Notes: generated by a model from the letters alone, not told the origin. 34,764 nucleotides of DNA from Perkinsus olseni (GCA_013115125.1 JABANN010000368.1:1-34764), one strand, 5' to 3'; shown: positions 3,492 to 33,955, counted from the first letter of the stretch. Program-made: numbers and translations.

Positions 3492-4724
3492 CTAAAGGTC
3501 ACTCTCGTCACTGTCGTAATCGGAACCGTAAAGTTCTCGTTCTTCCTCCTCCATGTACTCCAGATGGAATCCATGGTCCTCGTGACGGGTATACTTGACG
3601 TAGTGTCTGAGCTTCATAACAGAGTATCCTGCGCAGTAAGTGACCCTGTTGCCGCGTACAGCCTCACGTCTACCACGAATAGCTATATAGGCCTTCCAGT
3701 CATCGCTTATGCTTAGAGAGCAAATTTTTTCATAGCCAAAGCACTCATACTCACAGCGAGGGAGAAGACCCTCGGGGCAGTGACACTCTGGTGGTGCCAG
3801 GACGGCATCCTTGTACATATCGTAGACGAAAAACATCTCGTCACGCTGACCACCAAACGAGCCAGCGCAGACCCTCCCGTTGGTGAAGGGAACGAAGCGG
3901 CACGTGATGGCCTTGTGCCCGGGGGACTCGTTGACAATACCCATCCCCTTCCTCCAGAGACAGAGCTCACCCTTGGAGTTGCCCTTAGTATAGAGAATAT
4001 GGGTTGGACGGCCCTTATCCATAATAGCGTCTTGGAACACAGGGTCAGGGATGATGAAGCCAGGATCCCACTCGTCCTCGTCGTCCCAGATTGATAGACG
4101 ATCGAGATCACGTGTGAGCCTGATCACCCTCTTGAATTCACGACTTTTCGGACTGAGCATGTATAGCCAATCAGTCTCAACACCGACGAGGAAGAGGTAG
4201 CCTTTCACTGCCTTCAACTGGTGGCACAGTTCGGGAAGCTCCATAATCGCCGGGGCGGATGGTCCTCGCATCACAGGTCTTCTGAGAAGATGGGTGGGGT
4301 CATCCGATAGGATGTAGTATAGCTGACCATTCACCAGACAGCCGTACTCGAGTACACCTTCAAGGCGGCAGACAACCTCGGGCGGCATCTGGCTAACATC
4401 GATCATAGGGACCTCGTGAGGAGGATTGAATCCTGCAAACAGAGGCTGAGGATGAACTCGAGGACCGCCTTGCAGCCGCGCAGCGACGATGGTACTCCCG
4501 CCGACAACACCTATGATTTCACGTGGCTCGACTGTCGTAGAGTAGTCTGATTCGAGAGGGACAAAATCGTTAGCCAATCTGGTACCATTTATGTGACCAC
4601 ACACATTGGGGTAAGTAGGAGGGAGGTAGCTCCATACAGGATTCACCAGATCGTCGCATTTATCACCGAGGCAGCTATGAAGAGCCTTCAGTCTCGCCGC
4701 GGCTAGAGTGGGAGCAGTGGACAT
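3492..4724 (-). CDS. Array copy 1 (distant paralog): N-terminal F-box-like motif, probable beta-propeller, acidic tail; ~410 aa, intronless
   Basis: Long ORF with likely ATG at 4724 (MSTAPTLAAARLKALHSCLGDKCDDLVNPVWSYLPP). It shares RLKAL...WSYL, CLVNGQLY and CRFVP with the array family. It ends in EEEERELYGSDYDSDESDL. Confidence 0.8.
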   Translation of the reverse strand: MSTAPTLAAARLKALHSCLGDKCDDLVNPVWSYLPPTYPNVCGHINGTRLANDFVPLESDYSTTVEPREIIGVVGGSTIVAARLQGGPRVHPQPLFAGFNPPHEVPMIDVSQMPPEVVCRLEGVLEYGCLVNGQLYYILSDDPTHLLRRPVMRGPSAPAIMELPELCHQLKAVKGYLFLVGVETDWLYMLSPKSREFKRVIRLTRDLDRLSIWDDEDEWDPGFIIPDPVFQDAIMDKGRPTHILYTKGNSKGELCLWRKGMGIVNESPGHKAITCRFVPFTNGRVCAGSFGGQRDEMFFVYDMYKDAVLAPPECHCPEGLLPRCEYECFGYEKICSLSISDDWKAYIAIRGRREAVRGNRVTYCAGYSVMKLRHYVKYTRHEDHGFHLEYMEEEERELYGSDYDSDESDL

Positions 4725-5779
4725 GTTTAAAATGAGGCTTTGCCACAACTGGTGGTTTGAGAATTGAGGGATGAAAGCAATCACCCCGGCGTCTCTCAGG
4801 GGTTATGACTTGCTGGTCGCGGACATCGGCTTTCCCAATAGAGTTCGCTCATTCATACACGCAAGGTTTAAAGACTTACTGCGAACATTTGGAGACATTC
4901 TACATGAATTCTTTTCGATATGTTCTCCACAAAAGTGACGCTAATAGATCGGCTGTGAACTGTGGACTCGATCACTCAACCACACATCGCCAGACCGCAC
5001 AGTCTCAGGAAAGGGCAATACCACCAAGTCCAAAATACAGTATGCTGCGTGGTTAAGTATGAGGGCGTACTTCGATTAATAGGATTAGGTCATTGCAAGC
5101 GCCCAGGACGGTCCATCCTTCGAGGCACCACACAACAGCTGAGCGATATAGAATCTCAGCTCAGCATGACGCTCGTGAATGACTAGAATGTCGAGCTTTG
5201 CGTAGCCGAAGTGATGCTTGAACGAGCCAAGCGGCGAAAATAGACAAACACACAATAGGAGAGGACGACGCTCCATAAAGCTGAACGAACGAGGCGAATC
5301 GCCACACAGCTGCAGCTAATGTTCGACCCTCGCTACTGCATCGATTTGACACTGTATCACAATTTATAATGTTCTTGTAGATAGAATCTCAAGATTCCAC
5401 TGAATATTTACTGCGTGAGTTCATGATGTGAACACATGTTTCGGTAGGAGGGCGGATCCGAAGTGGCCCATCATCCTTTTGTTAGCGAAGGATGATCATC
5501 ATGATCCATCTCGGCCCAACTACGTAGGCACTTCTTCACGACTAGTCCGATCATTCTCGAACAACGAGCGTTGTATATTTAGTCCATTCGATTATGGACG
5601 GATGAAGGAGCGGCTCTCTACGCGTTGGCTGTCAAACGCCCAATATGGGGCATCAATTCGAAGCCAAGAGCACATTGAAAACCCGACACCGGCAGGAAGA
5701 GAGAGGCAGAGAAATAACACCTTGCGAGCTTCATACGAATGTGAGAGACGCTAAAGTTAGCAATAGTACATGGCATACA

Positions 5780-6823
5780 TCACCCGGTCGAAAAATGAAC
5801 TCGTGAGGCCATCACTGTGAAAAGTGGGTTATAACCACCACCGGTCTTTTGGTGAGTCAGAACTACAAGGCCGCTCTGGGTAATCGCCAGATAGCGGAAG
5901 CAGCTGAGCTGTTGGTCTTGACCACAGTCCTCAGAAGGGCGCAACGTAAAGAGCACCGACATGCTCCAGATATCCAACAAACTGACAGAGGAAAAGCTCT
6001 TGCAATACGGTCGGGCAGCAACACATACTAGCTCGTCGTAGGAAGGAACGAACTTGCACATGTCGGCGGGCTCGTACGGTTCGATACTTCCATTACCATT
6101 GAAGTCAACAAAGTGGATGTAATTTCTGTCATCTTCGTACAGCACGCAGACGAGTTGAAACTTATCGTCATCTCTCGCTATTATGTCGATATCACAGACA
6201 TCACCCGGGATATCTGCAACGACTTCCCACTTCACACTATCTATGGGACAGTGGATGTCGAGAACCGACTGGTCGAGGGAAGCCCCGGGCGGAGCCAATT
6301 TTGTTCTGTACAGCTTGCGATCCTTGTACCCGACCGTGAAAAGCTGTCCATTAGACACACATGTTGAGTCGCACAGATAATTGTCGGGACCGCCTGATGG
6401 CGAGGGAATCCACCCCATACTATCCCCACTGGAGAGCGATACGCGCATGATACAATCTGGCCGAACATCTCGATCATAATAATATAAAAACTCGCCATCC
6501 GTACAGATTCTTGAAGACTCAGTATAAACATCAAACTCATCAACCACCACCGTCATGCCGTCGCTCTCGATATCATGACCGCTGATTGTCTTGAGTTCCG
6601 GAGCTTGATCCGGCTCAACACTAAGGAGGATGGAGCTCCGGCCGAGTGAGTCCATCCCAGCTATATAGCCCTGGCGATCGACTGTGTAGAGGGGTGATAA
6701 GGCCGGCCTTGGAGCCGCCAGAAAGGACCATGTGACCCAAAGGAGGACACCCTCCGACGAGTCGTACGTGTGGTTCAGCACATCAAGACGCAAACAGACC
6801 GCGGAGCGTTGCGACGGTTTCAT
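5780..6823 (-). CDS. Array copy 2: F-box-like motif plus probable beta-propeller, 347 aa
   Basis: Intact ORF carrying the family motifs AVCLRL, WSFL, GMDSLGRSS, VVVDEF, ICTDG, CVSNGQLF, WEVVAD, CKFVPSYDELVCVA and DIWSMSV. Confidence 0.9.
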   Translation of the reverse strand: MKPSQRSAVCLRLDVLNHTYDSSEGVLLWVTWSFLAAPRPALSPLYTVDRQGYIAGMDSLGRSSILLSVEPDQAPELKTISGHDIESDGMTVVVDEFDVYTESSRICTDGEFLYYYDRDVRPDCIMRVSLSSGDSMGWIPSPSGGPDNYLCDSTCVSNGQLFTVGYKDRKLYRTKLAPPGASLDQSVLDIHCPIDSVKWEVVADIPGDVCDIDIIARDDDKFQLVCVLYEDDRNYIHFVDFNGNGSIEPYEPADMCKFVPSYDELVCVAARPYCKSFSSVSLLDIWSMSVLFTLRPSEDCGQDQQLSCFRYLAITQSGLVVLTHQKTGGGYNPLFTVMASRVHFSTG

Positions 6824-7254
6824 TGTTGCTTTTGAAGCTGGAGAACAAGAGCCTGTAACGGATGCATTATCCCGAAGGCGTACGGAACATGAAGATTATA
6901 TATACGATACTGTCTTCCCTAACAGAATCTCTCGAAAACCCTCTAAGAATGTGCGACTTATCAATAGTTGGCATTCACTGAAAGGCCTGCCCCTTTCACA
7001 CCTGCCTTGAGTACCATCCACGAGAAGTGGCGAGCTCATGCAGACTTGTTTTCCGCTGTAAACAATGGGAAAGGGGAACCGAGACAGAATCCCAGTAGCA
7101 GAGGCTAGAGTCGTTGCAATAGCCATCCCCGACTCGAAACCCAAGACTAATTGCGTGTGGAGGAAACAACAACCTAGTAAAGCAGGGACTGTACTGACGT
7201 TAGTCGCGCAACGAGCACCGAAAATAGAAGATCCTGACAGTACAGCATCGATTC

Positions 7255-7284
7255 CTCAGTCGCAGACACATCGCGGGACGCCGA
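7255..7284 (-). pseudogene. Isolated relic of the family N-terminal motif (RRPAMCLRLR)
   Basis: 27 of 30 nt match 25382-25411 (start of copy 13) by manual alignment. No continuous family ORF follows. Confidence 0.6.
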
Positions 7285-7679
7285 ACCGCGACTACTCTAT
7301 ACATTCCTCCATCGGCATCTTCCCCAATAGGGGTTGAAAAATCCATAACGACAGGACGACTACAACGACTTTCAAGGCGGCCGCTTTCATCCACTACCGA
7401 TCTGGCCTAGATTACGGATTATCAATTGTACAGAAGTTTTCATGTGCCCTGACCCAGAGGCACCACGTGGATGTGGGCATATCCATTTCGAGTCCGCTGG
7501 GACTCCCCAACTCCTCACCGAGTGAAAAAAAATGAGGCAATACTTTTCCAATTGGCTGGTCGATTCGACCTGGTCGAAGGCAATCCCTTGGTAATACGAG
7601 CTCATCAAGGCATAGCAGTGGGCCACTGCCAGCGACCCACTGGAATTGTCATAGAGAATCGCAGTTGTGAATTGTTATG

Positions 7680-8750
7680 TCATGAGATGGAAAATCTCAT
7701 AGGGAATCGCAGTTGTGACACTACGACATCAAACGTTGGATCAACAAGGTAGGACTTTTGCTGAGCAAGAACGACGAGATCGTTCTCCGTGACACCCAGA
7801 TAGCAGTAACATCCGAGGGAGGCATTCATTGCAAATTCAGTCAGGGACGGTAGCGAGCATACCACAGACATCGACCAGATATCCACCAAACTGATGTCCC
7901 ACAAGAAAGCATCGCGAGGCGATCGGGATGCAACACATACAAACTCATCATGGGAGGGAATGAACTTACACATCCAAGCATCGTTGTAGCGTTTCAGAGT
8001 CTTGTTGCCTCCGAAATCGACATAGTAAAGGGAACGATCTCCTTCCTTATCATTATGAACCACACAAACGAACTGGAACTCATCTTTATCTCTCGCTATC
8101 ACGTCGATGTAGGAAGCGCCAAACGGAAGATCTGCAACAGGCTTCCACTCAACACCGTCCATGAGATGATCCACATCGGTGACCAATCGATCCACATCAT
8201 CACCGACGGGAGGTAGGACCGTCCTGAATAGCTTGTGATCTCCGTATCCCACCATGAAAAGTTGTCCATTGGACAAACAATTTGTTTCCGACAGGTTGTA
8301 GTATGAGTCCTGGCCAGGCGGAGAGGGAAACACAACTACGCCATCGCCATTGGGGAGGGACATACGCGCCACACAGCCTCGCTCCGCATCCGCATCAGAA
8401 AAATAAAGCATCTTGCCGTCGGTGCAAATACTCATAGGGAGCCTGTCCACTTCCAACTCATCAACCACCACTTTAAGGCCATCGACCCCGACATCGTGGC
8501 CGCTAATCACACGTACATCTTCACCATCTGCTGGCTGGACACTAAAGACAACAGAACTTCGGCCCCATGAGTCCATCCCGGATATGTACCCCCCGCGCTG
8601 GACAGTGTAGAAGTGCGATAGAGTAGGACTTGAAGTGGCTATGAATGACCATATGGTCAACAGAAGGTCGCCCTCCGATAAGTGACAAACCTCGTTGAAA
8701 GCTCTCAGACGTAGAGACAATGCTGAACGGCGAGACAACTCGCTTGTCAT
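7680..8750 (-). CDS. Array copy 3: F-box-like motif plus probable beta-propeller, ~356 aa
   Basis: Intact ORF. ATG at 8750 (MTSELSRRSALSLRLRAF) chosen by analogy with paralogs; an alternative ATG lies at 8774. All family motifs present. Confidence 0.88.
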   Translation of the reverse strand: MTSELSRRSALSLRLRAFNEVCHLSEGDLLLTIWSFIATSSPTLSHFYTVQRGGYISGMDSWGRSSVVFSVQPADGEDVRVISGHDVGVDGLKVVVDELEVDRLPMSICTDGKMLYFSDADAERGCVARMSLPNGDGVVVFPSPPGQDSYYNLSETNCLSNGQLFMVGYGDHKLFRTVLPPVGDDVDRLVTDVDHLMDGVEWKPVADLPFGASYIDVIARDKDEFQFVCVVHNDKEGDRSLYYVDFGGNKTLKRYNDAWMCKFIPSHDEFVCVASRSPRDAFLWDISLVDIWSMSVVCSLPSLTEFAMNASLGCYCYLGVTENDLVVLAQQKSYLVDPTFDVVVSQLRFPMRFSIS

Positions 8751-9673
8751 CTCGGTGAGGACTGTAGAAGCCATTGACGAGATGTCTGGATAAGCCTTAT
8801 TGTATGACACGTCTGCCACCCCTCCGGCCAGTAAGAAGCGTCAACTCAACACGATGCACTTTCTCATAGTCTAGTGATTAGACTCTAGTCCCGCCGTTCA
8901 TGAGACTGGAACTTGGGTTCGAGCTGCGATTCGCAATGGCGTTGAGAGGTTGTTGTTGTTGCACAACCGATCTATAACGGAAAGAAACAAAAGCAACCAT
9001 CGAGGAAAAACCAGAACAACCGGACTGAGCATTCGCCGTCCTCATGAATCCCCTCAGCGACCCCACGAAGAGAGTGGAGCGACCCCACGAAGTTATAGAC
9101 ACCATCACAAAATACGAGGACGTGATGATCGCTAGTGTAATCAGGCCGTAGTGATGTCTCTCTACACAACTAGTGCCTGATTGGTCAATACCAGTCTCCC
9201 TACTTATGCGATTGGACTGCCTAAAGATACGAGTGCAGGGCTTCTGCACTCATAAGACCATCAGGAAAGAGGCATCGCGAAGTGCTCATCACTAGTCATT
9301 TTCGTGCACGCTGTCATCATCATGAAGGGTGATCATCAGCGGCGATCACTCGGTGGCACGCATGTTTTTCACCGAATTGAGTTTTGTTGATTGAGAATCT
9401 GCTGCAACATATGCTATCGCGGTACACATTCCACGCGGCAATAGCATTGCAGCGGGCATGCCGACGAGACGTTTGTCAGTAGTGAACTCGCCATCTTCGA
9501 TTAAGCTAATGAACCGCGACTCACTGGGCAGGAAGGCTGGTAGTAAACGCGACACAGGTCGTCATATGAATTGATGCGATCATAACAACCATGCTATAAT
9601 AATCACGAGGCCCTCATGGTGAGGGTGTGATGATCGAGTCAACTTCTAATCGAACGCGTGGGCATTCGGTCAA

Positions 9674-10732
9674 TCACTGGAGTTCCCAGACCATTATTTC
9701 GAAGAATGGGTTCGCTGACCTTTGCTGACCAACAACCGCAAGACGGTTATCCATGGCAGCTAAATACCAGGTCTCTCCGAACTTTTTGTACTTTCCGATG
9801 CCTCCTGGACGGTCCAGCACGAAGAGCACCGACATGGACCAGATATCTACCAAGCTAATCCAAGGAACGTCGGAGGAGTCGAGGCCGCCAGCCACACACA
9901 CTAGCTCATCATTGGAAGGAACGAATCTACACAGCCATGCGTCTTCGAAAGGCTCGAGGCTTTCATTCCCTTCATAATCAACATGGTGGACGTAGGTCGC
10001 GAAGTCATCGGGGTCGGCTTTACGGCCCACGCAGACTAACTGGAATCTACCATCACTCCTAGCTATCACATCCATACCAGTAACGACAAGTTTGATATCA
10101 GCAACAGCCTCCCACCCAAATCCGTCGGTGTAGCCACCTCTGCCAAAGACTGGTTGCTCATCATGTTCACTGAGCGGAGATAGTCTAGTTCTGATCAATT
10201 CATGGCCCATTGCCGCGAAAAGACACCCATTTGACACACAGTTGAGTTGTGTGAGATAGCTCGTGCTTGGCGGGACAGGAATCACTTCCACACAATCACC
10301 ACTGGAAAGGGACACACGAACCATGTTTCGTCGGTTCGATTGAGGATAATATATGCAGTCACGATCAACACAAATACTTATTGTCCTCCCGTCCACTTCG
10401 TCGAACCTATCAGTCATCACCCCAAACTTCTCATCGTCGAAATCATAAGAGCTGATCAGCATAGCCCTGGAGCGATCTGAAAGAATGCTCAGCACAGCGG
10501 AACCTCGCCCGAACGTGTCCATCCCGCACACGTATCCCTCGCGTTCGGCAGTATACACGAGAGATAGGGTAGGCATTCGAGCCACGAGGAATGACCATGA
10601 GGTCCACAGAAGGCCGCTCTCTGATGAGTCACATCTCTTCCTGAGAGCGCTTAGACGGAGACATACCGCGGTGCGCCGACCCGATTGCATAGACATTCTC
10701 AAAGACTGTCGCGAAAACGCTACACTTCGCAT
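9674..10732 (-). CDS. Array copy 4: F-box-like motif plus probable beta-propeller, 340-352 aa
   Basis: Intact ORF with RRTAVCLRLSALRKRCDSSESGLLWTSWSFL. The real start may be 10696 or 10690. Confidence 0.88.
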   Translation of the reverse strand: MRSVAFSRQSLRMSMQSGRRTAVCLRLSALRKRCDSSESGLLWTSWSFLVARMPTLSLVYTAEREGYVCGMDTFGRGSAVLSILSDRSRAMLISSYDFDDEKFGVMTDRFDEVDGRTISICVDRDCIYYPQSNRRNMVRVSLSSGDCVEVIPVPPSTSYLTQLNCVSNGCLFAAMGHELIRTRLSPLSEHDEQPVFGRGGYTDGFGWEAVADIKLVVTGMDVIARSDGRFQLVCVGRKADPDDFATYVHHVDYEGNESLEPFEDAWLCRFVPSNDELVCVAGGLDSSDVPWISLVDIWSMSVLFVLDRPGGIGKYKKFGETWYLAAMDNRLAVVGQQRSANPFFEIMVWELQ

Positions 10733-11511
10733 CGATGAACATGAATGACCTCGAAGGCAAGCTTGACTAAATTGTCTTCGGGCAAGGACAAAGCCTCATT
10801 TCGCTCATGACCCTACTATCTGCCTCCCAATGTCTCCGCACGCGACACGAAGAATGATGGGAAACTGTTTCACTCGTGACCAGAGGTCAAAAATCGCAAA
10901 CCCCGACATCTAGCTTTCTCCTCCGCGAACTAACACCCCATGGAGCAAACATGTCGCAGGATGTTGAGTGCATTCTACAGTGCGTCACATTATCTCACAA
11001 TATGCCTCAATAATGTGATACAATGACGACTAGTTGAAAGCTCATGCTTGGGCATGTTATGTATAATGCTGTTATAGCAACGGTGATCCACACCATGTAC
11101 CTTGAGATTCATATACGGGGACTGCCATGTCGGCTGTCAAATAACTAAAATCGTACCATGAGTAGCGACTGTTACACGGAGGAGCAGAGATTCTGTGTGC
11201 TTCAGAGTGGCTAAATTGCCCTTCACTTTAATGAGGCCGGGGATCACCCCAGTACCACTTTGGCAGTCATTCATCCATGTGTTGTTTGTCAATGACCCGT
11301 GCTAAGAAACTCGGCCCTGGGAAAAGACTCAACTATGTTATAAAGGGTGAAGATATACTGGGCTGTTAGCCGATTCGAGAACACGAGAACTAAGTTATAA
11401 CATACACCAGCTGTAAGAGGGAAACCGAGACTTCCTTACATGCTAATGGTAATCGCGAAAATCAACAGTTCCAGGGGATGGAATACCACGGAAGCCGTAA
11501 CACAGCTATCA

Positions 11512-12564
11512 TCAACTGCAAAAACTCAGACGCCACACGCTGACTTTGAAAAGTGGATCAGAGGATTCTTTCTGCTGAGCAAGAACGACAAGACCACTCT
11601 CCGTGGTGGCCATGTAGGCACAGAACGATCTGTACTTCGAGCGGGATAGATAATCGAGCGAGTAGATCACGGACATGGACCAGACATCCACCAAACTGAT
11701 GGTCCACGAAAACGTCTGAGAATCGCACCGAGAGGCAACGCATACTAGCTCGTCGTAGGAAGGAACGAACTTGCACAACCGGGCGCCGGAGTGAGGCTTC
11801 AAGGTACCGCCTCCATCACTATCGAAATAATAAACGAAACACTCGCGACTACGGTCATCATAGCCAACACAGACCAGTCGCAACTCATCATCACCTTCAG
11901 CTATTACGTCGATATCAGTTACGGTGGAGTAACGATTGACCGGTAGATCAGCAACAGGCTTCCACTCAACACCATCTATGAAACGATGCGGGCTACGGAA
12001 CCCATCCAGGTGTTCATTAGCGAGCGGAGGAATTTTAGTTTTGAAAAGTTTACCTGCTCCGTACCCCACCATAAAAAGCTGCCCATTAGACACACAGTTA
12101 GTTTCTGACAGATTGTCGTATGTATCTGTCCCCGGTGGCGAGGGAATCAAGTCCCTACGCTCATCATTGCAGAGAGACCTACGCATAACCCAACCTGGGC
12201 GAGCATCGTAGTCGGGATAATACAAGCTCTCACCATCGGTACAGATGCTCTCAGGATGTCTATCGACTTCGAACTCGTCAACCACCACCCTCATGTCACT
12301 ATTATTCATATCATGACCACTGATCATGCGTATGTCATCACCGTCTGGATCATCACTCAGCAGGACGGATCTTTCACCCAATGAGTCCATCCCGAAAATG
12401 TAGCCCTCGCGGTATACCGTGTAGAGGATCGATAGGGTAGGCCGTGGGAAAGCGAGAAATGACCATGTGCTCCACAGGTGGTCGTCTTCGGACGAACCGA
12501 ACACATCGTTGAGGGCCTTCATGCGCAGACACGCTGCAGACTGACGAGACGGTTCCTCAGGCAT
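11512..12564 (-). CDS. Array copy 5: F-box-like motif plus probable beta-propeller, 350 aa
   Basis: Intact ORF with all family motifs. Its closest relative is copy 9 (16774..17826). Confidence 0.9.
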   Translation of the reverse strand: MPEEPSRQSAACLRMKALNDVFGSSEDDHLWSTWSFLAFPRPTLSILYTVYREGYIFGMDSLGERSVLLSDDPDGDDIRMISGHDMNNSDMRVVVDEFEVDRHPESICTDGESLYYPDYDARPGWVMRRSLCNDERRDLIPSPPGTDTYDNLSETNCVSNGQLFMVGYGAGKLFKTKIPPLANEHLDGFRSPHRFIDGVEWKPVADLPVNRYSTVTDIDVIAEGDDELRLVCVGYDDRSRECFVYYFDSDGGGTLKPHSGARLCKFVPSYDELVCVASRCDSQTFSWTISLVDVWSMSVIYSLDYLSRSKYRSFCAYMATTESGLVVLAQQKESSDPLFKVSVWRLSFCS

Positions 12565-12784
12565 TCAAACTAAGGAGCCCGCAAACTATTCACTGCACCA
12601 TGAACCCTATTTTCCCCGCGATCGAACCAACGTAGGCAGAACTTCACGAAATCCAGTGCTCAGTCGTTCAGCCTAGGAGAAAAGTGGGATTAGGACTCCA
12701 AATCCCGGAGGCCGGCAAAGTATCAGTATCAACTTCAGCAACTTCCGGAACCCCTACGCATCTTCCTCGAATCTCAGATCGCAA

Positions 12785-13030
12785 TGGATGCAAATTTCGT
12801 CCTTCAAGTTGGAGCACGCGTTAACTCATCATGGGAAGGAATTAACTTGCACATCCAAGAATCGTAGCGTTCCGGGATCTTGTTTCCTTAGAAAATTGGC
12901 ATAGCGAAGGGAACGATCCCCTTATTATCATAAACAAAACAAACGAACTGGTACTCATCATCAGCTCTCGCTAGCAGTGAGTCGCTACAATGCAAGAAGC
13001 CACCGATGGTAGATCTGCGAGAGGCTACTA
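12785..13030 (-). pseudogene. Copy 6: degenerate internal fragment of a copy-3-like gene
   Basis: Nucleotide similarity to 7926-8140 (aactcatcatggga.gga.t.aactt.cacatccaag; gggaacgatc; acaaacgaactgg.actcatc; agatctgc) with many indels. Confidence 0.75.
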
Positions 13031-13260
13031 CCAACCATCACCGGGAGTAAGGCAATCTATATCTCTTGAGTCCAATGAGACAATCTATGGAATCTTTGTA
13101 GTGGCGAGTAAACACCGGCGTCTTCGGGTGGCCCAGTCAACGCAAAGTCCGTTGGAGCGCGAAATCAACTTGAAAGATGAAAACAATTTACTATCCATTC
13201 ATAAGGCCAATGGCCTCAGGCCATTGCTAAAAACATAAAGTACCTCTACTAATAGCGACA

Positions 13261-15824: not shown

Positions 15825-15900
15825 GACGCCACACCTCTTTCTGAGAGTACTTAGACGGAGATACGCCGCGGTACATCGACACGATCGGGTTGGTATTCTA
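15825..15900 (-). pseudogene. Copy 8: 5' stub of a copy-4-like gene
   Basis: cacacctctttctgagagtacttagacggagatacgccgcggtac matches 10630-10675. The rest of the gene is absent. Confidence 0.75.
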
Positions 15901-16773
15901 AGGGACTGTCGCGAAGAAGCTACACTTCAGCAACAATCAACAAGAATGACCTCAAAGCAACGTTCGACTGAATTGTATGTGGGCAAGCACGGAGCGTCCT
16001 TTCGATCATGAACCTCCTAAAGAATCATCCATCTGGATATTCCCCAACACGACACGACACTTTCCCTTGAAGACCAAGGGGTCAAGAAATGCGAGTCCCG
16101 AGGCCTAGCTTTCTACTACGCGCAGTGTCAACCCATGCGGCGGACATCTCACAGAATGTCGAGGCGACTCGACAGTGCTCCGAATGATCTTATCGACAGT
16201 GCTTAATGATTAGCCTCAATAATGAGATACGATGACGGCGAATCGAAGAACTTATTCTCAGATATGTTACAAATAATGTTCTTTCGATAATGGCATTCCA
16301 TGCCTTGGAGGAGAGGTCCATTCATGGGGGTTGCCATTTATTGACTGCTACATATCATGAACAACAACGTTTATCGACACGAGAACCGTTTTATGAGTAG
16401 CGCCTGTAGCATTAAAGTCGAGCGAAATTTCTGTGCGCCTCAGACCCGCCGAGTTATTCTGAGCATCCACTAGAGACTCCCAAGTGGGCTCAGGCTCAGG
16501 CTCACCCCAGTACCACTTCGGCAGTGATTCATTTACGTGGTGTTTGTCGATGGCCCGGCTATGAGAACTCCAGCCCCGGAAAAGAGCCCCACCTCTGTTA
16601 TAAAGGGTAGAGGTATAATCGGCCGTTGGCCCACTCAAGGATACGAGACTAACTGAGAACATACACCGGCTGCGGGTGGGAAGCGGAGACTCCTTTATAT
16701 GCTCATGATGACAGTGAGATCAGCAGTTCCCGTTCCAAGTGACGGAATATTATGGATACCCGTAGCACAGGCA

Positions 16774-17826
16774 TCAACAACTGCGGAATCTCAGACGCCA
16801 CACGATGATCTCGAAAAGTGGATTAGAGGAGTCTTTCTGCTGAGCTAGAACGACAAGACCACTCTCCGTTATTGTCAAGTAAGAACTGAACGAACTACAC
16901 GTGAAGAGGCATGGATAATCGAGCGTGTAGACCATAGACATGGACCAGACATCCAGGAAACTTATGGTCCGCGAAAATATCTGAGATTCAGAGCGAGAGC
17001 CGACGCATACTAAGTCGTCGTTGGAAGGAACGAACTTGCACATCTGAGCATTGGTGGAAGGCTTGAAGGAGCCACCTCCATCACTATCAAAATAATAAAG
17101 GAAACAGTCATGACTTCTATTGTCGTAGACAGCACAGACCAACCGCAACTCATCATCATCTCCTGCTATTACGTCGATATCGAGAATGGTGGAGTAAGTA
17201 TTGAGCGGTAGATCAGCAACAGCCTTCCACTCAACATCTATGAAACGATCCGAGTTACGGACCCCATCCAGGTGTTCATTGGTGAGCGGGGGAATTTTAG
17301 TCTTGAAAAGTTTACGTGGTCCGTATTGCACCACGAAAAGCTGCCCATTAGACACACAGTTTGCCTCTGACAGACGTTCATGTGGATCTCCACCCGGTGG
17401 AGTAGGAATTAACTCCTTACGCTCATCATTGCAGAGAGACCTGCGTATAACCCAACCTGGATCAACAAGGTAGTCGGGATAATACAAGCTCTCACCATCG
17501 GTATAAATGCCATAAGGAAGCCTATGGACTGCGAACGCATTAACCACCGTCCTCATGTCACTATCGCTCATATCATGGCCACTGATCCATCGTATGTCAT
17601 CAGCATCTCGATCAACACTCAAAAGGACGGAGTTCTCACCCAAGGAGTCCATCCCGTAAATGTATCCCTCGCGATCAACCGTGAACAGGAGCGATAGGGT
17701 AGGCCGTGGGGGAGCGAGAAATGACCATGTACTGTAGAGGAGGTCACCCTCAGATGAACCGAACATATCATTAATAGCCTTCAGGCGCAGGCACGCTGCT
17801 GAGTGCCGAGACAGTTCCTGTGGCAT
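16774..17826 (-). CDS. Array copy 9: F-box-like motif plus probable beta-propeller, 350 aa
   Basis: Intact ORF sharing diagnostic segments with copy 5 (PGWVxRRSLCNDER, KLFKTKIPPLxNEHLDG, YYFDSDGGG). Confidence 0.9.
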   Translation of the reverse strand: MPQELSRHSAACLRLKAINDMFGSSEGDLLYSTWSFLAPPRPTLSLLFTVDREGYIYGMDSLGENSVLLSVDRDADDIRWISGHDMSDSDMRTVVNAFAVHRLPYGIYTDGESLYYPDYLVDPGWVIRRSLCNDERKELIPTPPGGDPHERLSEANCVSNGQLFVVQYGPRKLFKTKIPPLTNEHLDGVRNSDRFIDVEWKAVADLPLNTYSTILDIDVIAGDDDELRLVCAVYDNRSHDCFLYYFDSDGGGSFKPSTNAQMCKFVPSNDDLVCVGSRSESQIFSRTISFLDVWSMSMVYTLDYPCLFTCSSFSSYLTITESGLVVLAQQKDSSNPLFEIIVWRLRFRSC

Positions 17827-17872
17827 TCAGAGTGAGGAGCCAAAAAACTGATTCCCTGCATTGTGAACTCTA

Positions 17873-18877
17873 CATCATGTCCCCAACTAAATAGAATGTT
17901 TTGTCGGTCAACTTGAACGATTTTGATAGCCACTCAGCGAGCATCATGGGAATTGAATTTCCATGACTTTCGCTGAGTGGCTACTAAAACCTCTGGTCTC
18001 CGAGATGAGGCAAGGCGCGGCACTCAACTGGCGTCGCAAAGGTCGACAGGAACGCGAAGGCAGAGTGTGCCGGGACCGAAGGCGATACCACCAATGGCAA
18101 ACGCGGTGTTGTATAGTTCTTACTCGTGGAACACAAGGCCAGAGGGAGCCTGTGAGATGGATCTTATGAAAGAGCTATTGCCCAGACTACTCTGCACGCA
18201 TAAACATAGACGGAGCGCAACACGCGGTTCGGCAGGCACGTTGCCTCTCTCGAAGACCTCGGCTAGAAAAAAGGGAGAGCGTCGAGAGCACGACGCTCGG
18301 CGAATCCAACCGTCATCGAGCACTGTTATAGGCTGTAGTTAGGCCTTGTGTCCCTTTAGGCTAGGTCACTCTGAGTTCACCAGTTTGAGCCTAACCTCCT
18401 TACTCACCATTCGGTGTGAGAGGCTGAGAATGACTATCTTAACACCATTGATTGTAGTTGCCTCTAAGTCTCGCCATTGGCTACAGTATGCTCTCTACAC
18501 TGTTGCACGCATACGTTACGGGGCTTGCTGAAGCCTTTGATTGGGAGTCAATAGAGGCACGCAACAGCAACTGACAGCACGAGCCGGCCCTCAAGGCACT
18601 AGCTTGCTGGCGCGGGAGGCACAATCGAAAGTTGTGCGCTCAACATAACATAGCATCTCTCCGCGCCGGTTTTAACCTATAGATAACCCACTCATTTATC
18701 CGCCGTAAAATTTTTTTAATAGCACGGAGAGTGAGATCTAATATGCGTGACATGAGTTTCTTGAATTTGCAAGGGTATTTTAAGTGGATGAAAACTTTTT
18801 TTAAAACAGAATTTCGTTTTCCCTGCCCTTCTATGTAACTCGAAGGGAACAGTATTTTATTCGATCGGGAAATGTTG
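17873..18877. mobile_element. Non-autonomous TIR DNA transposon (MITE-like, TA target as in Tc1/mariner), 1005 bp
   Basis: Absent from the paralogous block, where a single TA sits at 12608-12609. Flanked here by TA at 17871-72 and 18878-79. Degenerate TIRs: left CATCATGTCCCCAACTAAATAGAAT, right (reverse complement) CAACATTTCCCGATCGAATAAAAT. No transposase ORF recognised. Confidence 0.8.
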
Positions 18878-19142
18878 TAGTTTCCATACGAACGAATCAG
18901 CATTGCAAGAACCCTGCGAAGTTCTGCGCTCAAGCGTTGAGGCCTGAGGAGTGGGGCTGGGAGGCCGACAAAGTCTCAGTGAGAGTCTGAGGTGAGAACC
19001 CACCATGCCGCCACACCCGGGCCGGGTGATCCGGCTACTACCAACAAGTCCCGCAGTATCCTATCACGCCGACTATCCCATTCGCAACGACCATTTAACT
19101 TCGGAAACCCGACGCAATCTCCCTCGAATCCCAGATCACAAC

Positions 19143-19370
19143 GGATGCAAATTTCGTCTTTCACAACGAGGGACTCGTGAGCTCATCATGGGAGGGAATC
19201 AAGTTGCAAATCCGAGAATCGTAGCGTCCCAAGGCCTTGTTTCCTTTTTCCACTGTTTTCGAAACGATCCCCTTCCTCACAATCATGAAGTGCACAAACG
19301 ATTCCGAACATTCCATCATCAGCTCTTGCTAACATAAGTAGACACCAATGGTAGATATACGGAGATCCCT
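19143..19370 (-). pseudogene. Degenerate copy-3-like internal fragment (duplicate of the 12785-13030 relic)
   Basis: ggatgcaaatttcgtc, ctcatcatggga.ggaat, gaatcgtagcgt and aacgatcccctt are shared with 12785-12975. Confidence 0.75.
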
Positions 19371-19658
19371 AACTATTAGTTAGCCATCGCCGTGGCTGGC
19401 CATGAAAAGCCGCCCCTTCGGGCGACAGGAGGGGTGCGAGTCGGGACCTGCTGGGTAGAGAGTTGCACCTAGCCTGGGTGACCCAGGCACGATAACCAGT
19501 AGAGGTGATATCGAGCAACGCAGGAGCGCTGCCAGGGAACGCAACGCCATCCCTGAGAGACAGGGGAATGGAATACATGATTCGATAATGGCAACAATGA
19601 CATAAGAATTACGTATGAATTGAGTAAGAATTAGGGACATGAGCCTTCGCTCGATCAC

Positions 19659-20681
19659 TCAATCACACTCCAGTTGCGAGACCACAACCCCGAAGAATGG
19701 ATCCTCCTCAACATCATTTTGGAGGCCTAAAACCACGAGACCGTTCTCCATAATCGTGAAGAAGCGGAGGTAACTGAATTTAGGACCAAATCCGGAGATT
19801 TCTAGACGGCAGACTTCTGGCACTGACATGGACCAGATATCCACCACTCTGATCCAAAGGAAGTTGGAGGAGTCCGCGCGACCAGCCACATAGACTATCT
19901 CATCATTGGAAGGGACAAACTTGCACAGCAACGCCTCTTCCGAGATGTTCATAGTCGTGATAATCTCCTCATAATCAACATAGTGGATGCAATTCTCTTC
20001 GGTATCAACATCATAGCCCACGCAGACCAGCTTAAATTTGCCGTCCTCTCGAGCGACCACATCCATACCAGTAACGTCGGACGGGAGATCAGCAACAGCC
20101 TTCCACTGCACACCCTCTATGGGGTGGAGTCTGGCAGAGCGCGGTCTGGGGAGTTTGCCGAACGGAGGCAGTGTAGCGCTGAATAGTTTTCGGTCTTCGC
20201 GCCCTACCATGAAAAATCGTCCGTTTGACACGCAGTTCAAATACGATAGATCGTTGCCTGGCGGGGCGGTAATGAGTGCTTTGAACTTTCGATTACGGGA
20301 AGATATAACCAGCAACATATTATCACAAGTGACAAGAACATGCGAGCGGTCCCCAAGGGTACGGAAACTCCCTAAAGGGCGATCCGCTTCAAACACATTA
20401 GTCCATGTGCTCAAGTTCAAACCATCGGGAGCATAACGACACATCACCCGCCTTTGCTGGAAATCACCAGGCTGCCTCAGCAGCAAAGCAGAGCTTCGCT
20501 GGAATGCGTCCAGCCCGAGTATGAATCCCTCGCGTCCAGCAGCATACAGGGACGATAGGGTAGGCCTTCCACCCATCAGGAATGGCCATGAGATCCACAG
20601 GAGGCCGCTCTCTGATGAGTCACATCTCTTTCTGAGAGCACTTAGACGCAGACACACCGCGGTACGCCGGGAGGACCTCAT
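19659..20681 (-). CDS. Array copy 10: F-box-like motif plus probable beta-propeller, 340 aa (mosaic, with a divergent N-terminal half)
   Basis: Intact ORF. The N-terminus is nearly identical to copy 4 and a central block resembles copy 12. Confidence 0.87.
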   Translation of the reverse strand: MRSSRRTAVCLRLSALRKRCDSSESGLLWISWPFLMGGRPTLSSLYAAGREGFILGLDAFQRSSALLLRQPGDFQQRRVMCRYAPDGLNLSTWTNVFEADRPLGSFRTLGDRSHVLVTCDNMLLVISSRNRKFKALITAPPGNDLSYLNCVSNGRFFMVGREDRKLFSATLPPFGKLPRPRSARLHPIEGVQWKAVADLPSDVTGMDVVAREDGKFKLVCVGYDVDTEENCIHYVDYEEIITTMNISEEALLCKFVPSNDEIVYVAGRADSSNFLWIRVVDIWSMSVPEVCRLEISGFGPKFSYLRFFTIMENGLVVLGLQNDVEEDPFFGVVVSQLECD

Positions 20682-21090
20682 CCTTGTTTAAAAGGGCTGC
20701 CATACACATACTTATTCGAAAAAAAACTCGTAGGATCCCCGGAACAGTTAGACAGTATTGACAAGCGCGTACTTGAGCGGTTCCGGAAGAAGGGCCGTGA
20801 TTCGTCCATTGCGAGCCAACACCGCCTAGCATGGTGTCAACTGCGACTCATCCGATGAGGGTGAGGTATCTCATACTTTACCCTTTCTACATACCGTATA
20901 CATTCAAGTAAAGAGACAGAGGGGGACAACCACACTTGGTACCGGACGTATCAAACGCACTGTAATCACCTGGCAGGCTGCGACCGTATACAAAACTACA
21001 CAAGCATGAAAATGGGAGCAGAAACCGTATTACATACATATGCTCACCATGAACATGGCACGAGGGTGAAACTACCAAATGGGGACGCCG

Positions 21091-22136
21091 TCACGAACGA
21101 GTATCAATTTGAAAGACCGCCACCTCGAAGAAGCACTCTCTACCCCTGATGTGTTGCTGTGCGACAACTACACGATCGTTCTCAGTGATAGTCAGATAGC
21201 AATGACAGCCGAGGAAAGGGTCATACCCGTAGGGGGACACATGGTCCAGCGTAGAGAGGACAGACCCGTACCAGACATCCACTAGGATGATGGACCATGA
21301 TAACGTAGAAGACGCGAGGTTCGTAGCCACGCATACCAGCTCATCACAGGAAGGAACGAACTTGCACATCCGCGCATCTTTGCACGGCAAGATCTTCTCA
21401 GTGCCATCGCAATCAACGAAATGAATAGAATAGCTTTCACTTCCATCGTCACAACCCACGCAGACGAACTGAAATTTATCATCATCCGAGCCATTACGTC
21501 TATAGCAATTACTTCCAGCGGGAGATCAGCAACAGGCTCCCACGCAAGACCGTCTACCGGGGGACGAAACCTGCATGATGACAGTTCTAGGTGGTCACTG
21601 AGGCCAGGTAGGCTCATTCTGAACAACTTGCAGTCTCCGTTCCCGACCATGAATAACTGTCCATTTGACACACAGTGAGTGTCTGACAGATTGCAGCTCG
21701 GGTGCTCACCGGGCGGTGCGGGAAGTATATCAACACAGTCACTGATGGAAAGGGACAATCGCACCAGCCAGTTCCTCTGCAGACCAAAATCAGGATAATA
21801 CAAACACTCTCCGTCGGTACAAATACTCATCGGCTCTCCATCTATTTCCAACTCACCAAAGACCGCCGTCACACCTCCAGAACTCACATCATACCGACTG
21901 ATCAGACACACATCCCCACCGTGTATTGGCTTAACACTAAAAAGGACGGAACTCCGCCCGAACGAGTATGTGAAACCCTCACGGCGGACAGTATACGAAG
22001 GTCATAGAATGGAGTCTGGAGTCGCCAGGAATGACCATATCGCCCATAGAAGGCCGTTCTCTGGTAAGACACGTCTATCATTGAGGGCTCGCAGTCGCAG
22101 GCACACCGCGTTACGCCGAGACGATTTCATAGCCAT
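21091..22136 (-). pseudogene. Array copy 11: full-length but disrupted
   Basis: ATG at 22136 (MAMKSSRRNAVCLRLRAL). In-frame TGA at 22002-22004 where paralogs have Ser. A 9-nt deletion removes GMD. A 1-nt deletion near 21486 (GCT CGG ATG for GCT CGG GAT) links ORFs 21282..21911 and 21091..21459. Confidence 0.85.
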
Positions 22137-22740
22137 CGCCGATGAGGTGAACTATCCGTCCCAGACACACAAATGCCTTCACGGCGGTTTTTCTCAGCCC
22201 CCACATCACTAGCAAGGACTGACGGCGCTGCAAATTCCCACAGGATGGCAAGCGAGAGGTAGAGATTACTTTCTATTGTTCTCAGTGATCCATCAAGCCC
22301 GACCTGAGTGTACTTCTGGTGACCTCTGTTCCGTTTCACGACAAATTGGTTTAGTAGAACGAGCCAGGACCAGTGTAACACCGCCATAGGTACGGAAATA
22401 CTAACAAGCGACTGCACTAATCCCGAATGCACACTCTGGGCGATACAATTGCGCTCAATCTCGCACTGTACTGGCGAGCACGGTAGAGATACTATCCGTA
22501 TCTGAACCGGGAGTCGAGACATGCTGGTTTAGGAATTTCTATAGCGGGCAGAGTAAGCCCAGCAGTCATACTCGGTAGCCAAAACAGTGCGTGCGAGCTA
22601 AGCAACCTGGCAAATGTTACACTCGCAAGGACGATCACATAATTGCCGCAAATACACCACTGAAAGCCCAAGACTAGCGATGAGAGGAAACAACCTGTAG
22701 AAATTTCATATCCAGTTCCCCGCGAACATCAAGCAATCGA

Positions 22741-23777
22741 TCACTGAAATCTCGACACTACAAACTCGTAAAACGCATCCTCATCACTCGAGATTTGCTG
22801 AGCGACAACTACAAGATCGTCCTCTGTGATGGTCAAATAGCAGTAGTTGCCGACGTAAGGATCGCAGCCGATGTCACACAAAGAGTCCACCGAGAAGACC
22901 ACGGACATGTCCAGAACATCAATCAAGCTGATGTTCCATGAGGGTTCATCGGAGAGCGGCCGGGCAGCAACACACACTAGCTCATCGTAGGAAGGAACGA
23001 ACTTGCACATCGACACCTCATCGTGCGGCTTAACGCTCTCATTCCCCTCATAATCAGCATAGTGGATGTATTCCTTTTCGGTGTCCACGTCATAGCCCAC
23101 GCAGACCAGCTTGAACTTGCCATCATCTCTAGCGACCACATCCATATCACTAACGTCGGACGGAAGATCAGCAACAGCCTCCCATTTGATACCTTCTACG
23201 GGACGGAGTCTTTCTTGGGCTGACTGTGCGACATACTCACTGAGCGGAGGTAGTCTTGTTCTGAACAGCTTGTGGTGTCCGTACCCATACATGAAAAGTT
23301 GTCCATTCGAGACACAGTGTACATCCGACGGAGTGCCGTAACCACCCTGTGCAGGAATAACACCCACACAATCGCCGCTGGAGAGAGACATGCGTAGCAT
23401 GCAGTTCGTCCGTGCATCAATATCAGGATAATATAAAATCTCGCCGTCAGTAGATATACTCGCAGGGAGCCTATCCACTTCAAACTCATCAACCACCACC
23501 CTCATCTCTTAGTATCGATATTATGTCCGCTCATCCAGCGTATATCCTCGCCGTCCTGTGGCTGAGTACTGAGCATGACGGAGCTTCGCCCCAACGAGTC
23601 CATCCCGCATATGAAGCCTTCGCGATGCACAGTGTACAGGGGCACTAGGGTAGGCCTCGGGGTCCCTAGGTATGACCATGAGGTCCACAGAAGGCCGCTC
23701 TCCCATGAACCGCATGCCTTGTCGAGAGCTTTCAAATGCAAACACATCGCCGAACGCCGAGAAAACTTCTTTGCCAT
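22741..23777 (-). pseudogene. Array copy 12: single -1 nt frameshift (pseudogene, split gene or assembly indel)
   Basis: ORFs 23502..23777 and 22741..23505 together make a full family protein. There are 17 rather than 18 nt between the His of GH and the Met of MRVVVDEF, producing an ATGA overlap. Confidence 0.8.
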
Positions 23778-24365
23778 TTTCACCGCCGAAAACAAAAAAA
23801 CCTCTGCCAAAACGAGCTACTGGCTCGGTCACATCCAAGCAAAGGTGACAACAAGAGAGGTGCCGGTATCAAGCCCGAGCCTGGATTGTGGGGATCTAAC
23901 GCAACGCGGGTAACAAGAGAAAATCATACCACACGAATGAGCACGCGCATATCAAGATATGTCCGGTGTTCGCCAGCGATGGCGATACTCTCGCAGAGAA
24001 CGGCAATCACCTCATCCGAGACGACTGTGCTTCTTTATGCTAGCTGCGAGTGCGACAGCAGGTACGGAAGGAAGGCGGAAACATCAGCAATCTCATACGC
24101 TTCCGTCGCAAGTCCAACAGCAGACGAAGCTTGCAACGATGAGTGAATTAGAACCGACGCTTCGAGCCAGGGAGAAAAAACGAAGCACAAGTTTGCGAGT
24201 GTGTTTTTCGCCGATAGTGCTGGTACTAAATGAGCATCTCCATCCAAGAACAGAGTCAGCATAGCAGAGGCCACTAACCTCAGGCGGTCAAGTGACTTGA
24301 GTGATAAGCCATAAGGTGGGTTAACACGAACCACACGAGGATGAGAGAAACTACAGTAGATAACG

Positions 24366-25428
24366 TTACCCGATCGAGAGCTGTAGTCGATAAACCGTCA
24401 ACTCGAATATCGCATCAAGCCCACGGTCTTTCTGCTGAGCGATAACCACAAGACCGTCCTCAGTGATCGTCATGTAGTTGCAGAGGACGTCATGAGGGTA
24501 GCCCTCATAGTGACGAAGAGCGTCCAGCGAGAAGACTACCGACATGCACCAAATATCAACCAAGCTGATGCTCCAGGCGAAATCATCAGAGTCTTGGCAG
24601 GCAGCAACACATACAAGCTCGTCAGAAGAAGGAACCAACTTGCACATCCGAGCGTCGACATGAGGCTTCACTCGGGCCTTCCCTTCATGATCGACTAAGT
24701 AGATGTAACACTCTCCGCTATGGCCATCATGGCCCGCACAGACCAGTTGAAAGCTATCATCATCTCTAGCTATTACGTCGATATCGGTTACTCGGGAGGG
24801 GAGATCAGCAACAGCGACCCACTCAACACTCCCTTTGGGAGCATTCCTGTCAAGGACTTCGGCTGCCTGTGTGAGGTAGTCGCCGGGTGGAGGCAATACC
24901 ATTTTGAACACTTTGCCATCCCCGTATCCCACCATGAAAAGTTGTCCATTGGAGACACAGAAAGTCTCTGACAGATTATAGTAGGGCTTTGCACCGGGTG
25001 GTGGGGGGAGTACACCCAGACGTTGACCATTGGAAAAGGAAGCGCAGAGCACACAACACCGCCCTGCATCGTCACCAGCATGATATAGATTCTCGCCATC
25101 AGTAGCAATATTTCCAAAGTCAATCTTGAGTTCAAACTCATCAACCACCACTCTCATGGTTCGCATCAGTCATGTCATGGTCACTGATCGTACGTAGACC
25201 CTCCCCGCCTGGCTCGGAACTCAGTAGAATGGAGCCTCGACCAAGACCGGCGACCCCGGATACGTAGCCCTCACGTTGTACAGTGTACAGGGGTGACACG
25301 GTAGGCCTCGGGGTGGCTAGATACAACCACATGCTCCACAGGAGGCCGCTCTCCGATGAGTCCGACGCCTCGTTGAGAGCTCTCAGCCGGAGACACATCG
25401 CGGAACGCCGAGATGATTCTGTTACCAT
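24366..25428 (-). pseudogene. Array copy 13: single +1 nt frameshift (pseudogene, split gene or assembly indel)
   Basis: ORFs 25141..25428 (MVTESSRRSAMCLRLRAL) and 24366..25166 together make a full protein. There are 19 rather than 18 nt before MRVVVDEF. Confidence 0.8.
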
Positions 25429-25639
25429 TTCTACCCATCCGAAGACGGCCAGAACCACGCCCTTCCTGATAATGCCCCATTCCCTTGACTCTCCACTAAT
25501 CAACACCAACAGCATGGGCGAGCTATGAGACAATTTGGGCGACGGTATGCGGATTAACACCGAGTCTGGTCTCACAGGGCAGACGACAAGTCGGTCACAC
25601 CTAGACGAAGAGTCTAACGAGAAAACTACACCGACGTCA

Positions 25640-26100
25640 TATCAATGAGGCCTGTAGTGATACTAAGGCATCGCAGAATGGAAGGGGACTGCACGTCCGA
25701 GAATGGACGTAGCACACCAGAGTTCGATTTCTCGCATGGGCCACACAGCAGGTAGGAGAATCCTTGCCATGGCGCGCATGAAACAATTGGGTCCTTTCGC
25801 TATCTCTAGCTATCCTACCAATATCAGGACCATCGAACGGGCGATCATCAACAACCTGCCAACTCATACGGCTCCTACCAACTCCTTCAAACTCATCAAC
25901 GACCTCCCTCATGTCCTGACTATTCATATTGCGACGTCCGCCCTTCTCACCGTTTGACTCAACACTAAGCAGTCAAACGAAGCTTCTTCTCTATGCGTGT
26001 AGTCCGCAAATGTCACGATCACGCTGTATAGTGCACGCTCTCGATAGGATAGACTCCTTAGGAGACGGTCACGAGATTCAGCGAAAGCCACGCCAAGACT
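25640..26100 (-). pseudogene. Copy 14: heavily deleted and degenerate family relic
   Basis: MNSQDMREVVDEFE and WQVVDDRP..DIGRIARD remnants, with large internal deletions and frameshifts. Confidence 0.75.

Positions 26101-33880: not shown

Positions 33881-33955
<75 letters not shown>

Follow-up and report, generated by a model that had tools for sequence, protein, structure and literature searches.

The stretch of DNA analysed here is a 34,764-nucleotide (nt) contig from Perkinsus olseni (JABANN010000368.1; the whole of contig C2644 of genome G000), which is referred to below as the window. Between positions 3492 and 26100, it carries a tandem array of genes encoding putative binding proteins with a short N-terminal helical box and a predicted β-propeller. 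Copies were mapped by open reading frame (ORF) listing together with tblastn and nhmmer profile searches of the window. Within these limits, eight intact copies, three frameshifted copies, four clear relics and one weak relic were detected, all on the minus strand. The intact ORFs encode 340–410 amino acids (aa). The main piece of each clear relic matched the profile with an expectation value (E) of 3e-27 to 3e-9, and the best match in the reversed window, used as a control, reached only E 0.27. The sequence-only reading of this locus had counted 16 co-oriented copies or relics (8 intact, 3 disrupted and 5 relics), a count that holds if the weak relic at 7255–7286 is included; the motifs that it quoted are present in the copies, one of them being a composite of two copies. 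The features are as follows, where contigs are those assembled from RNA-type sequencing runs (X2, X4, X9 and X12).

913–989, minus: probable 3′-end relic, beyond the array coordinates (nhmmer E 4e-5)
3492–4724, minus: copy 1, intact, 410 aa; divergent, of another subfamily, with an N-terminal helix, six-blade propeller and acidic tail; contigs in all four runs compared
5780–6823, minus: copy 2, intact, 347 aa; contigs in X2 and X9; a 99.7% identical protein in another assembly
7255–7286, minus: weak, uncertain relic of a 5′ end (nhmmer E 0.0024)
7680–8774, minus: copy 3, intact, family-aligned start at 8750; the most F-box-like box of the array; contigs in X4
9674–10732, minus: copy 4, intact, aligned start at 10696; identified from ORF and profile
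11512–12564, minus: copy 5, intact, 350 aa, the modelled reference; contigs in all four runs compared
12454–12546, minus: box of copy 5 (helices 7–22 and 27–37), with helix 2 in register with F-box helix 1
12822–13044, minus: copy-3-like relic (nhmmer and DNA similarity)
13261–14412, minus: copy 6, intact, aligned start at 14292, some transcripts spliced; identified from ORF, profile and contigs
13775–13819, minus: 45-nt GT..AG segment of copy 6, spliced out in X2 and X9; in frame, with loss of a blade 3 strand
14171–14228, minus: 58-nt GT..AG segment of copy 6, spliced out in X2 and X4; loss of box helix 2 and a frame shift
15822–15892, minus: relic, the 5′ end of a copy-4 duplicate, which came with the copy 5/7 segmental duplication
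16774–17826, minus: copy 7, intact, 350 aa; contigs in X12, X2 and X9
19180–19419, minus: relic, a duplicate of the 12.8-kb relic region (nhmmer and DNA similarity)
19659–20681, minus: copy 8, intact, 340 aa; contig in X4
21104–22136, minus: disrupted copy d1, with an internal stop at codon 45 and a frameshift near 21486
22736–23777, minus: disrupted copy d2, with a frameshift near 23505–23511; intact allele in another assembly
24371–25426, minus: disrupted copy d3, with a frameshift near 25159–25163; intact alleles in other assemblies
25660–26054, minus: relic in two pieces (nhmmer)

Copies 2–8 share 35–70% identity with one another. In contrast, copy 1 is 21% identical to copy 5 and had no tblastn match to copies 2–8 at E 1e-3. 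By hhalign, the copy-1 subfamily was joined to that of copies 2–8 over 242 columns that start at the box (probability 94%, E 1e-7). Copy 1 is a distant homologue from another clade, outside the tight array family, and the single family of approximately 350-aa proteins proposed earlier applies to copies 2–8 but not to copy 1. Neither a signal peptide nor a transmembrane segment was found in the eight intact proteins by a hydropathy scan run without a dedicated predictor (19-residue Kyte–Doolittle maximum mean, 1.05–1.53), in agreement with the earlier proposal.

Among 23 homologues of copy 5, all 18 named ones are P. olseni hypothetical proteins, and the other five are encoded in the window; homology thus leads to P. 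olseni and bears out the protist origin that had been guessed. Neither Pfam (scanned with 15, 27 and 21 sequences) nor NCBIfam yielded a relevant family, so that the proteins remain unassigned, as had been stated. When 1.84 billion representatives were searched exhaustively with a profile, 21 matches were obtained. The five that were looked up, none of which is among the six short matches, comprised two from P. olseni, one from P. chesapeaki, one clustering with a P. marinus protein and one unnamed. The sole non-Perkinsus-looking match, P0034 (E 4e-4), was set aside as a repetitive lipoprotein-like propeller. The range beyond Perkinsus is taken from this single exhaustive search, a broad-profile search having scored only 8000 candidates, with three matches. 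In the titles and abstract openings of the Perkinsus literature searched, no paper on this family was found; the supplements may list these genes.

Elsewhere in genome G000, at least 19 ORFs on ten other contigs matched the broad family profile with E < 1e-8, and 16 of them are at least 300 aa long. Most of these dispersed ORFs were used to build that profile and match it by construction, single-protein searches give lower bounds, and the most divergent ORFs, C2678b and C2481a, are uncertain members. On contig C2481, where five genes form a second small cluster, a dispersed member is present as an inverted duplicate with 99% identity (L003:4165–5130 and L015:1252–2217). In a quick IQ-TREE search, the deep joins of which were flagged as long-branch, copies 2–8, the broken copies and their homologues formed one 25-row clade (Shimodaira–Hasegawa-like approximate likelihood ratio test, 99), all named members of which are from P. 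olseni. The dispersed G000 genes paired with proteins of P. marinus or P. chesapeaki; copy 1 fell in another clade. Taken together, the species names in the array clade and the cross-species pairing of the dispersed genes indicate that this array is one tandemly amplified branch of an old, dispersed, Perkinsus-wide superfamily. The paralogues in other species (P. chesapeaki FOL47_000749; P. marinus Pmar_PMAR007296, Pmar_PMAR006023 and Pmar_PMAR005094) belong to the same superfamily and are all annotated as hypothetical; they differ from the array in pairing with dispersed G000 genes, and some have no box. The description of the family as lineage-specific is therefore appropriate for the array clade, named from P. 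olseni alone, but not for the superfamily, which is genus-wide, and the copy count that had been proposed for this genome and its relatives now extends to the further ORFs in G000 and to relatives in P. marinus and P. chesapeaki.

The fold of copy 5 was predicted by AlphaFold2 from a 27-row alignment with a mean predicted local distance difference test score (pLDDT) of 84.1 and a predicted template modelling score of 0.83. The model begins with helices at residues 7–22 and 27–37, followed by propeller strands, which we read from the DSSP string, rather than from coordinates, as six predicted four-stranded blades with the first strand closing the last blade. Copy 1 was predicted to adopt the same fold at lower confidence (pLDDT 72). 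Compared with 48,161 chains, copy 5 matched best the NHL domain of Brat (Z 22.6, root-mean-square deviation (rmsd) 3.4, 249 residues aligned), with Z 22.6 for Mei-P26 and 21.2 for NHL-2; the matches at Z 22.6 had rmsd 3.3–3.4 with approximately 250 residues aligned, the NHL domains spanned Z 19.6–22.6, and below them many other propellers matched the fold at 10–14% identity. WD40 propellers fitted worse by Foldseek (template modelling (TM) score 0.42–0.51, rmsd 6–17), and Pfam gave no WD40 match in the sequences scanned and no NHL match in 27 rows. With one profile, the family matched the Kelch propellers of NS1-BP (IVNS1ABP; E 1.3e-5) and KLHL2 (E 1e-3) over approximately two blades. Copy 5 as a whole, used as the query of a feature search in the Atlas, retrieved hypothetical clusters together with a single lead labelled ‘six-bladed propeller’ (0.87). 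Against viral models, Foldseek found generic propellers only, and F-box-named matches at ranks 1 and 7 were discounted (TM score approximately 0.4, rmsd 11–16). The propeller predicted from sequence was thus recovered for both copies modelled, but it is six-bladed and NHL/Kelch-like, not the seven-bladed WD40 type of F-box/WD40 proteins. It has six blades in common with the NHL domains of Brat, Mei-P26, NHL-2, TRIM2 and TRIM71, which are its best structural match; compared with those proteins, the array proteins are 10–14% identical, have no RING, B-box or coiled coil, and have an acidic surface. Six blades are likewise common to the Kelch domains of NS1-BP and KLHL2, which were matched over approximately two blades by one profile but not by a second, and from which the array proteins differ by the lack of a BTB/BACK domain and of a Pfam Kelch match.

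Propellers of this type include enzymes, and a sialidase-, lactonase- or lyase-like activity with Asp219 and Lys/Arg265 as catalytic residues would account for the invariance of D219 (27 of 27 rows) and the near-invariance of K/R265 (26 of 27). Sialidases and lactonases are also among the fold matches; for copy 1 the top-ranking fold was NEU1 (Z 16.3), level with NHL-2 (Z 15.9). The hallmarks of such enzymes are an Arg triad with Asp-boxes, or conserved metal ligands. In the 27 rows, however, no Asp-box was found, only D219 and P268 were invariant, no Arg triad, His or further acidic ligands were conserved across subfamilies, and the positions at the tunnel entrance varied freely. As inferred from the DSSP string, D219 and K/R265 are located in the middle of strands of neighbouring blades, where they fit a structural salt bridge. 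We therefore regard an enzymatic role as highly improbable, no signature of an enzyme having been detected.

The box is as well conserved as the core of the propeller, and by column identity it is the best-conserved part of the protein. Its consensus is R-L-x-x-L in helix 1 and L-x-x-x-I-W-x-F-L in helix 2, and the Trp is invariant in all 22 boxes, across subfamilies that are only approximately 20% identical. Mean column identity was 0.58 in the box (without gaps), 0.51 in the strands, 0.47 in the short bottom turns and 0.24 in the top loops (12% gaps), with the two loop faces assigned from standard propeller geometry; the top loops were more variable than all bottom loops together (p 5e-4). 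In copies 5 and 7, the pair with the least saturation, the ratio of non-synonymous to synonymous differences (pN/pS) was 0.20 in the box and 0.82 in the top loops, which indicates relaxed constraint on these loops rather than demonstrated positive selection. Among copies 2–8, the ratio of non-synonymous to synonymous divergence (dN/dS) was 0.22–0.59 in 21 of 21 pairs, and since dS exceeded 1 in 19 of them, these ratios are rough. The array family is under purifying selection. Two loci in G000 (L006:2099–3157 and L008:2202–3272) encode family propellers in which a basic N-terminal stretch replaces the box, and one of them is close to P. marinus P0044.

The box may be only a structural cap or localization tag, with the propellers acting as stand-alone binders of peptide, glycan or RNA and no link to ubiquitin ligases. 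The nearest folds being NHL domains and the existence of box-less members would both suit this explanation. The box, however, is not predicted to be firmly packed (pLDDT 54–73, compared with 79–96 for most of the propeller core), and yet it is the best-conserved part. The NHL domains of the Brat type bind RNA through a basic top face, whereas the array proteins are acidic (isoelectric point 4.5–6.0) and the top loops are net negative in six of seven copies, as counted from sequence and not from surface electrostatics. Brat-type RNA binding is disfavoured because of this acidity, and the stand-alone explanation as a whole seems unlikely to us.

Conservation of the box calls for a partner without naming one. 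We tentatively favour, at slightly less than an even chance, the view that these proteins are substrate receptors carrying a degenerate one-helix F-box, with Skp1 as the putative partner, and that they evolve by birth and death. Compared by hhalign with six F-boxes of genome G000, box helix 2 paired with helix 1 of these F-boxes, and the score was reached by one of 100 column shuffles with all boxes and by none of 60 with the 15 non-array boxes, which include copy 1. On a 13-residue BLOSUM comparison with the F-boxes, array boxes scored 0.7 and dispersed boxes outside the array 2.8, compared with 4.6–21.8 for real F-boxes and −7.0 for a background of 180 in-phase hydrophobic windows. Some dispersed boxes keep a Leu-Pro-Glu start, as in F-box helix 1, and an Atlas feature search with the most F-box-like member placed F-box clusters at ranks 2–3 (0.80 and 0.79), which we treat as leads only. 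Most contacts of an F-box to Skp1 are made by helix 1 and the preceding loop. The layout of an F-box protein is present, with an N-terminal box, a C-terminal putative binding domain and Skp1–cullin–F-box (SCF) core genes in the genome: G000 contains two near-identical tandem Skp1 genes on C3068, a divergent third gene, and cullin matches on three contigs. The divergent Skp1 gene (L028:1258–2527, on contig C91) is a candidate partner for a non-canonical box. In the literature, cowpox CP77 binds Skp1 with little more than F-box helix 1 (PMC4353913), the F-boxes of protists are degenerate, so that searches detect them with difficulty (PMC9485057), Toxoplasma has 18 F-box candidates under a three-helix definition (PMC6685633), and tandem expansion of F-box genes is accompanied by more variable substrate-binding domains (PMC8120010).

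Several observations weigh against this view. The box/F-box match is weak (hhalign probability 0.7%, E 0.084, 14 columns), and the seven array boxes alone did no better than shuffles, 19 of 60 of which reached their score. The 13-residue register was picked after a first run in which three of the six F-boxes were mis-registered (array p 0.34), and the boxes are related by descent and not independent, so the p-values overstate the likeness. The Leu-Pro start has been lost from the array boxes and is kept only in some dispersed members. In the Pfam scans, neither full proteins nor isolated boxes matched an F-box, and the box profile had no match in the PDB at E up to 10. The box is absent from two members in G000 and from the homologues P0043 and P0044. 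As for the propeller, the Kelch match was absent with a second profile and from Pfam, a long bottom-face insertion (0.22) varies as much as the top loops, and, besides the roughness of the dN/dS ratios, no region with dN/dS > 1 was found. The box is not a canonical F-box because F-box helices 2 and 3 are absent: in the model, the F-box-like helix runs directly into a propeller strand, and the box has two helices in approximately 35 residues, compared with the three-helix bundle of approximately 42–50 aa that defines an F-box. A search of G000 with PF12937 listed seven places, none of them in the array or at family loci. Of the N-terminal adaptor box proposed earlier, then, a conserved two-helix box together with variable ligand-face loops is supported, and its role as an SCF adaptor is weakly supported.

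The same two-part logic would apply if the box bound another shared partner or itself, for example as a DDB1-type helix-loop-helix ahead of a propeller or a LisH-like dimerization helix would, or if its partner were a Perkinsus-specific scaffold. This explains the conserved box equally well, the F-box match spans only the 14 columns noted above, and the upstream R-L-x-x-L helix is conserved without an F-box counterpart; the I-x-x-Y-L end of the helix is part of the LisH consensus as well. On the other hand, 21 boxes gave no LisH, SOCS or VHL match in Pfam, some dispersed boxes keep the F-box-like start, and a Skp1_POZ search of G000 detected nothing beyond three genes of the Skp1 type, with no distinct place for an Elongin C-like gene, within the limits that introns set to this search. 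A LisH search of the genome gave no match anywhere and is hence uninformative. We consider another partner possible, although doubtful.

Compared with known systems, F-box/WD40 and F-box/Kelch SCF receptors and their expansions in Caenorhabditis and plants have in common with the array a propeller preceded by a short helical box at the N terminus, duplication in tandem, broken copies, and variation mostly outside the box (PMC8120010). The array differs from those receptors in its approximately 35-aa two-helix box, of which only helix 2 matches, in the absence of Pfam F-box, WD40 and Kelch matches, and in the absence of dN/dS > 1. The truncated F-box/PRANC motifs of poxviruses, including that of cowpox CP77, are likewise reduced to approximately helix 1, but they are C-terminal, sit on ankyrin repeats and occur in viruses and intracellular bacteria (PMC4353913), whereas the array box is N-terminal, sits on a propeller, has an extra upstream helix, lies in a eukaryote's own genome and has no PRANC match.

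Turnover of the array is evident from its copies. Copies 5 and 7 are the youngest pair (70% identical, dS 0.39), and the DNA of 10630–12609 resembles that of 15830–17872: copy 7 arose by a segmental duplication that took along the start of copy 4. The break in d2 is real, because an X4 contig shares with the window both the gap and 12 of the 12 substitutions listed; assembly error was thereby rejected as its source. Proteins from other assemblies (P0051, P0053, P0005 and P0006) are intact across the d2 and d3 breaks at 87–98% identity, indicating that these copies have been lost in some lineages and kept in others, and a gene model from another assembly, P0011, skips the d3 break site. The frameshifts of d2 and d3 are different events at nearly the same profile position (89–90), just before a conserved Met, and the ORFs that they leave (254 and 266 aa) have no box. 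For copy 5, a gene model in another assembly (P0002, 260 aa) starts at the conserved Met that follows this position. The segmental duplication, the relics, the broken copies that are intact elsewhere and the tree all support the birth-and-death turnover that had been proposed.

To examine transcription, we compared the region 3000–22500 with four of 20 listed RNA-type runs, one of which is on record as RNA and three of which were guessed to be so; the evidence consists of assembled contigs, which show presence but cannot rank expression. Contig pieces identical to the window covered copies 1, 2, 3, 5, 6, 7 and 8, that is, seven of the eight intact copies, and also d1, and loose contig ends mapped to d2 and d3. 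For copy 4, no contig was found among the 32 of 84 pieces listed, and its bins were empty or nearly so, which is not evidence of silence. The expectation that the intact copies are transcribed thus holds for these seven. In copy 6, contigs revealed two joints with minus-strand GT..AG ends; each joint was seen in two runs that come from different studies, and the contigs therefore represent sense-strand RNA. An X4 contig is unspliced across the 45-nt segment, and the 58-nt splice is less sure, the short side of its joint being only 28 nt. The plain reading of this splicing is that it is cryptic; a regulated box-less form is possible. The genes are intronless, as proposed, in that their genomic ORFs are uninterrupted, but some transcripts of copy 6 are spliced. 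In a stretch without an intact family ORF (14751–16417), an unspliced 1671-nt X4 contig and shorter X9 contigs were observed; a contig of X2 has a T-rich loose end at 16069, possibly the 3′ terminus of a transcript from the minus strand.

Perkinsus being a parasite, the proteins might be effectors exported to the cells of the mollusc host, on which they could act by, for instance, hijacking host SCF in the manner of poxviral truncated F-boxes. The species-restricted clade would suit such a role, as would the window-like transcripts that occur, at low depth, in runs whose records name another organism. The absence of a signal peptide or transmembrane segment speaks against it, as do the lack of demonstrated positive selection and the parasite's own Skp1 and cullins, and we give this explanation very little credence. 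The suggestion that the array serves defence or host manipulation found no support.

Overall, the array encodes a genuine, unnamed family that is transcribed and subject to purifying selection, and both its anatomy and its evolution are those of a receptor repertoire. The array would represent a tandem expansion in P. olseni, starting from one member of a superfamily that occurs across Perkinsus and consists of intracellular two-part proteins, in which a conserved box of approximately 35 residues and two helices would sit under the bottom face of a six-bladed NHL/Kelch-like propeller closed by its N-terminal strand. The box would dock on one shared partner, most likely Skp1, while the top face of each propeller would take a different ligand. 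Helix 2 of the box may act as F-box helix 1, with the upstream helix standing in for the missing F-box helices, and the genes may evolve as SCF substrate receptors by birth and death, as do the F-box genes of nematodes and plants. An extended version of this account, which we consider conceivable but rather less than probable, is that perkinsids possess a rearranged F-box, invisible to Pfam, in which helix 1 alone is kept and an upstream helix replaces helices 2–3, and which recruits Skp1, possibly the paralogue on C91. This would amount to a hidden SCF repertoire of approximately 25–30 genes, several times the seven F-box places found by Pfam, with one branch amplified in P. olseni, its alleles being lost and splicing able to delete the box.

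Other sequences occur in and around the array. On the minus strand, 110–391 and 1943–2671 form a second small tandem family adjoining the array (mutual tblastn E 3e-7, no Pfam family), the DNA of 159–287 being similar to that of 2346–2474. Pieces of a multi-copy element lie at 17985–18461, with diverged contigs of very high depth (88–339) on 18323–18461. On the plus strand, a long coiled-coil gene, apparently split by introns, flanks the array at 28624–31590 and had only non-specific coiled-coil matches in Pfam. Tandem units of approximately 0.9 kb occupy approximately 32400–34764 on the plus strand; they contain long runs of ACA, which if coding would be Thr-rich, as well as a small domain with Cys, their layout is mucin-like, and two ORF pieces were scanned without a Pfam family being found.

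If the box is a cryptic Skp1-binding motif, the F-box counts of alveolates are underestimated, the birth and death of ubiquitin-ligase receptors in the style of nematodes and plants would also occur in a parasitic protist, and a new motif would be available for searches. If the box does not bind Skp1, the array would be an ordinary lineage-specific tandem family of putative binding proteins. The presence/absence polymorphism of its copies could serve population studies.

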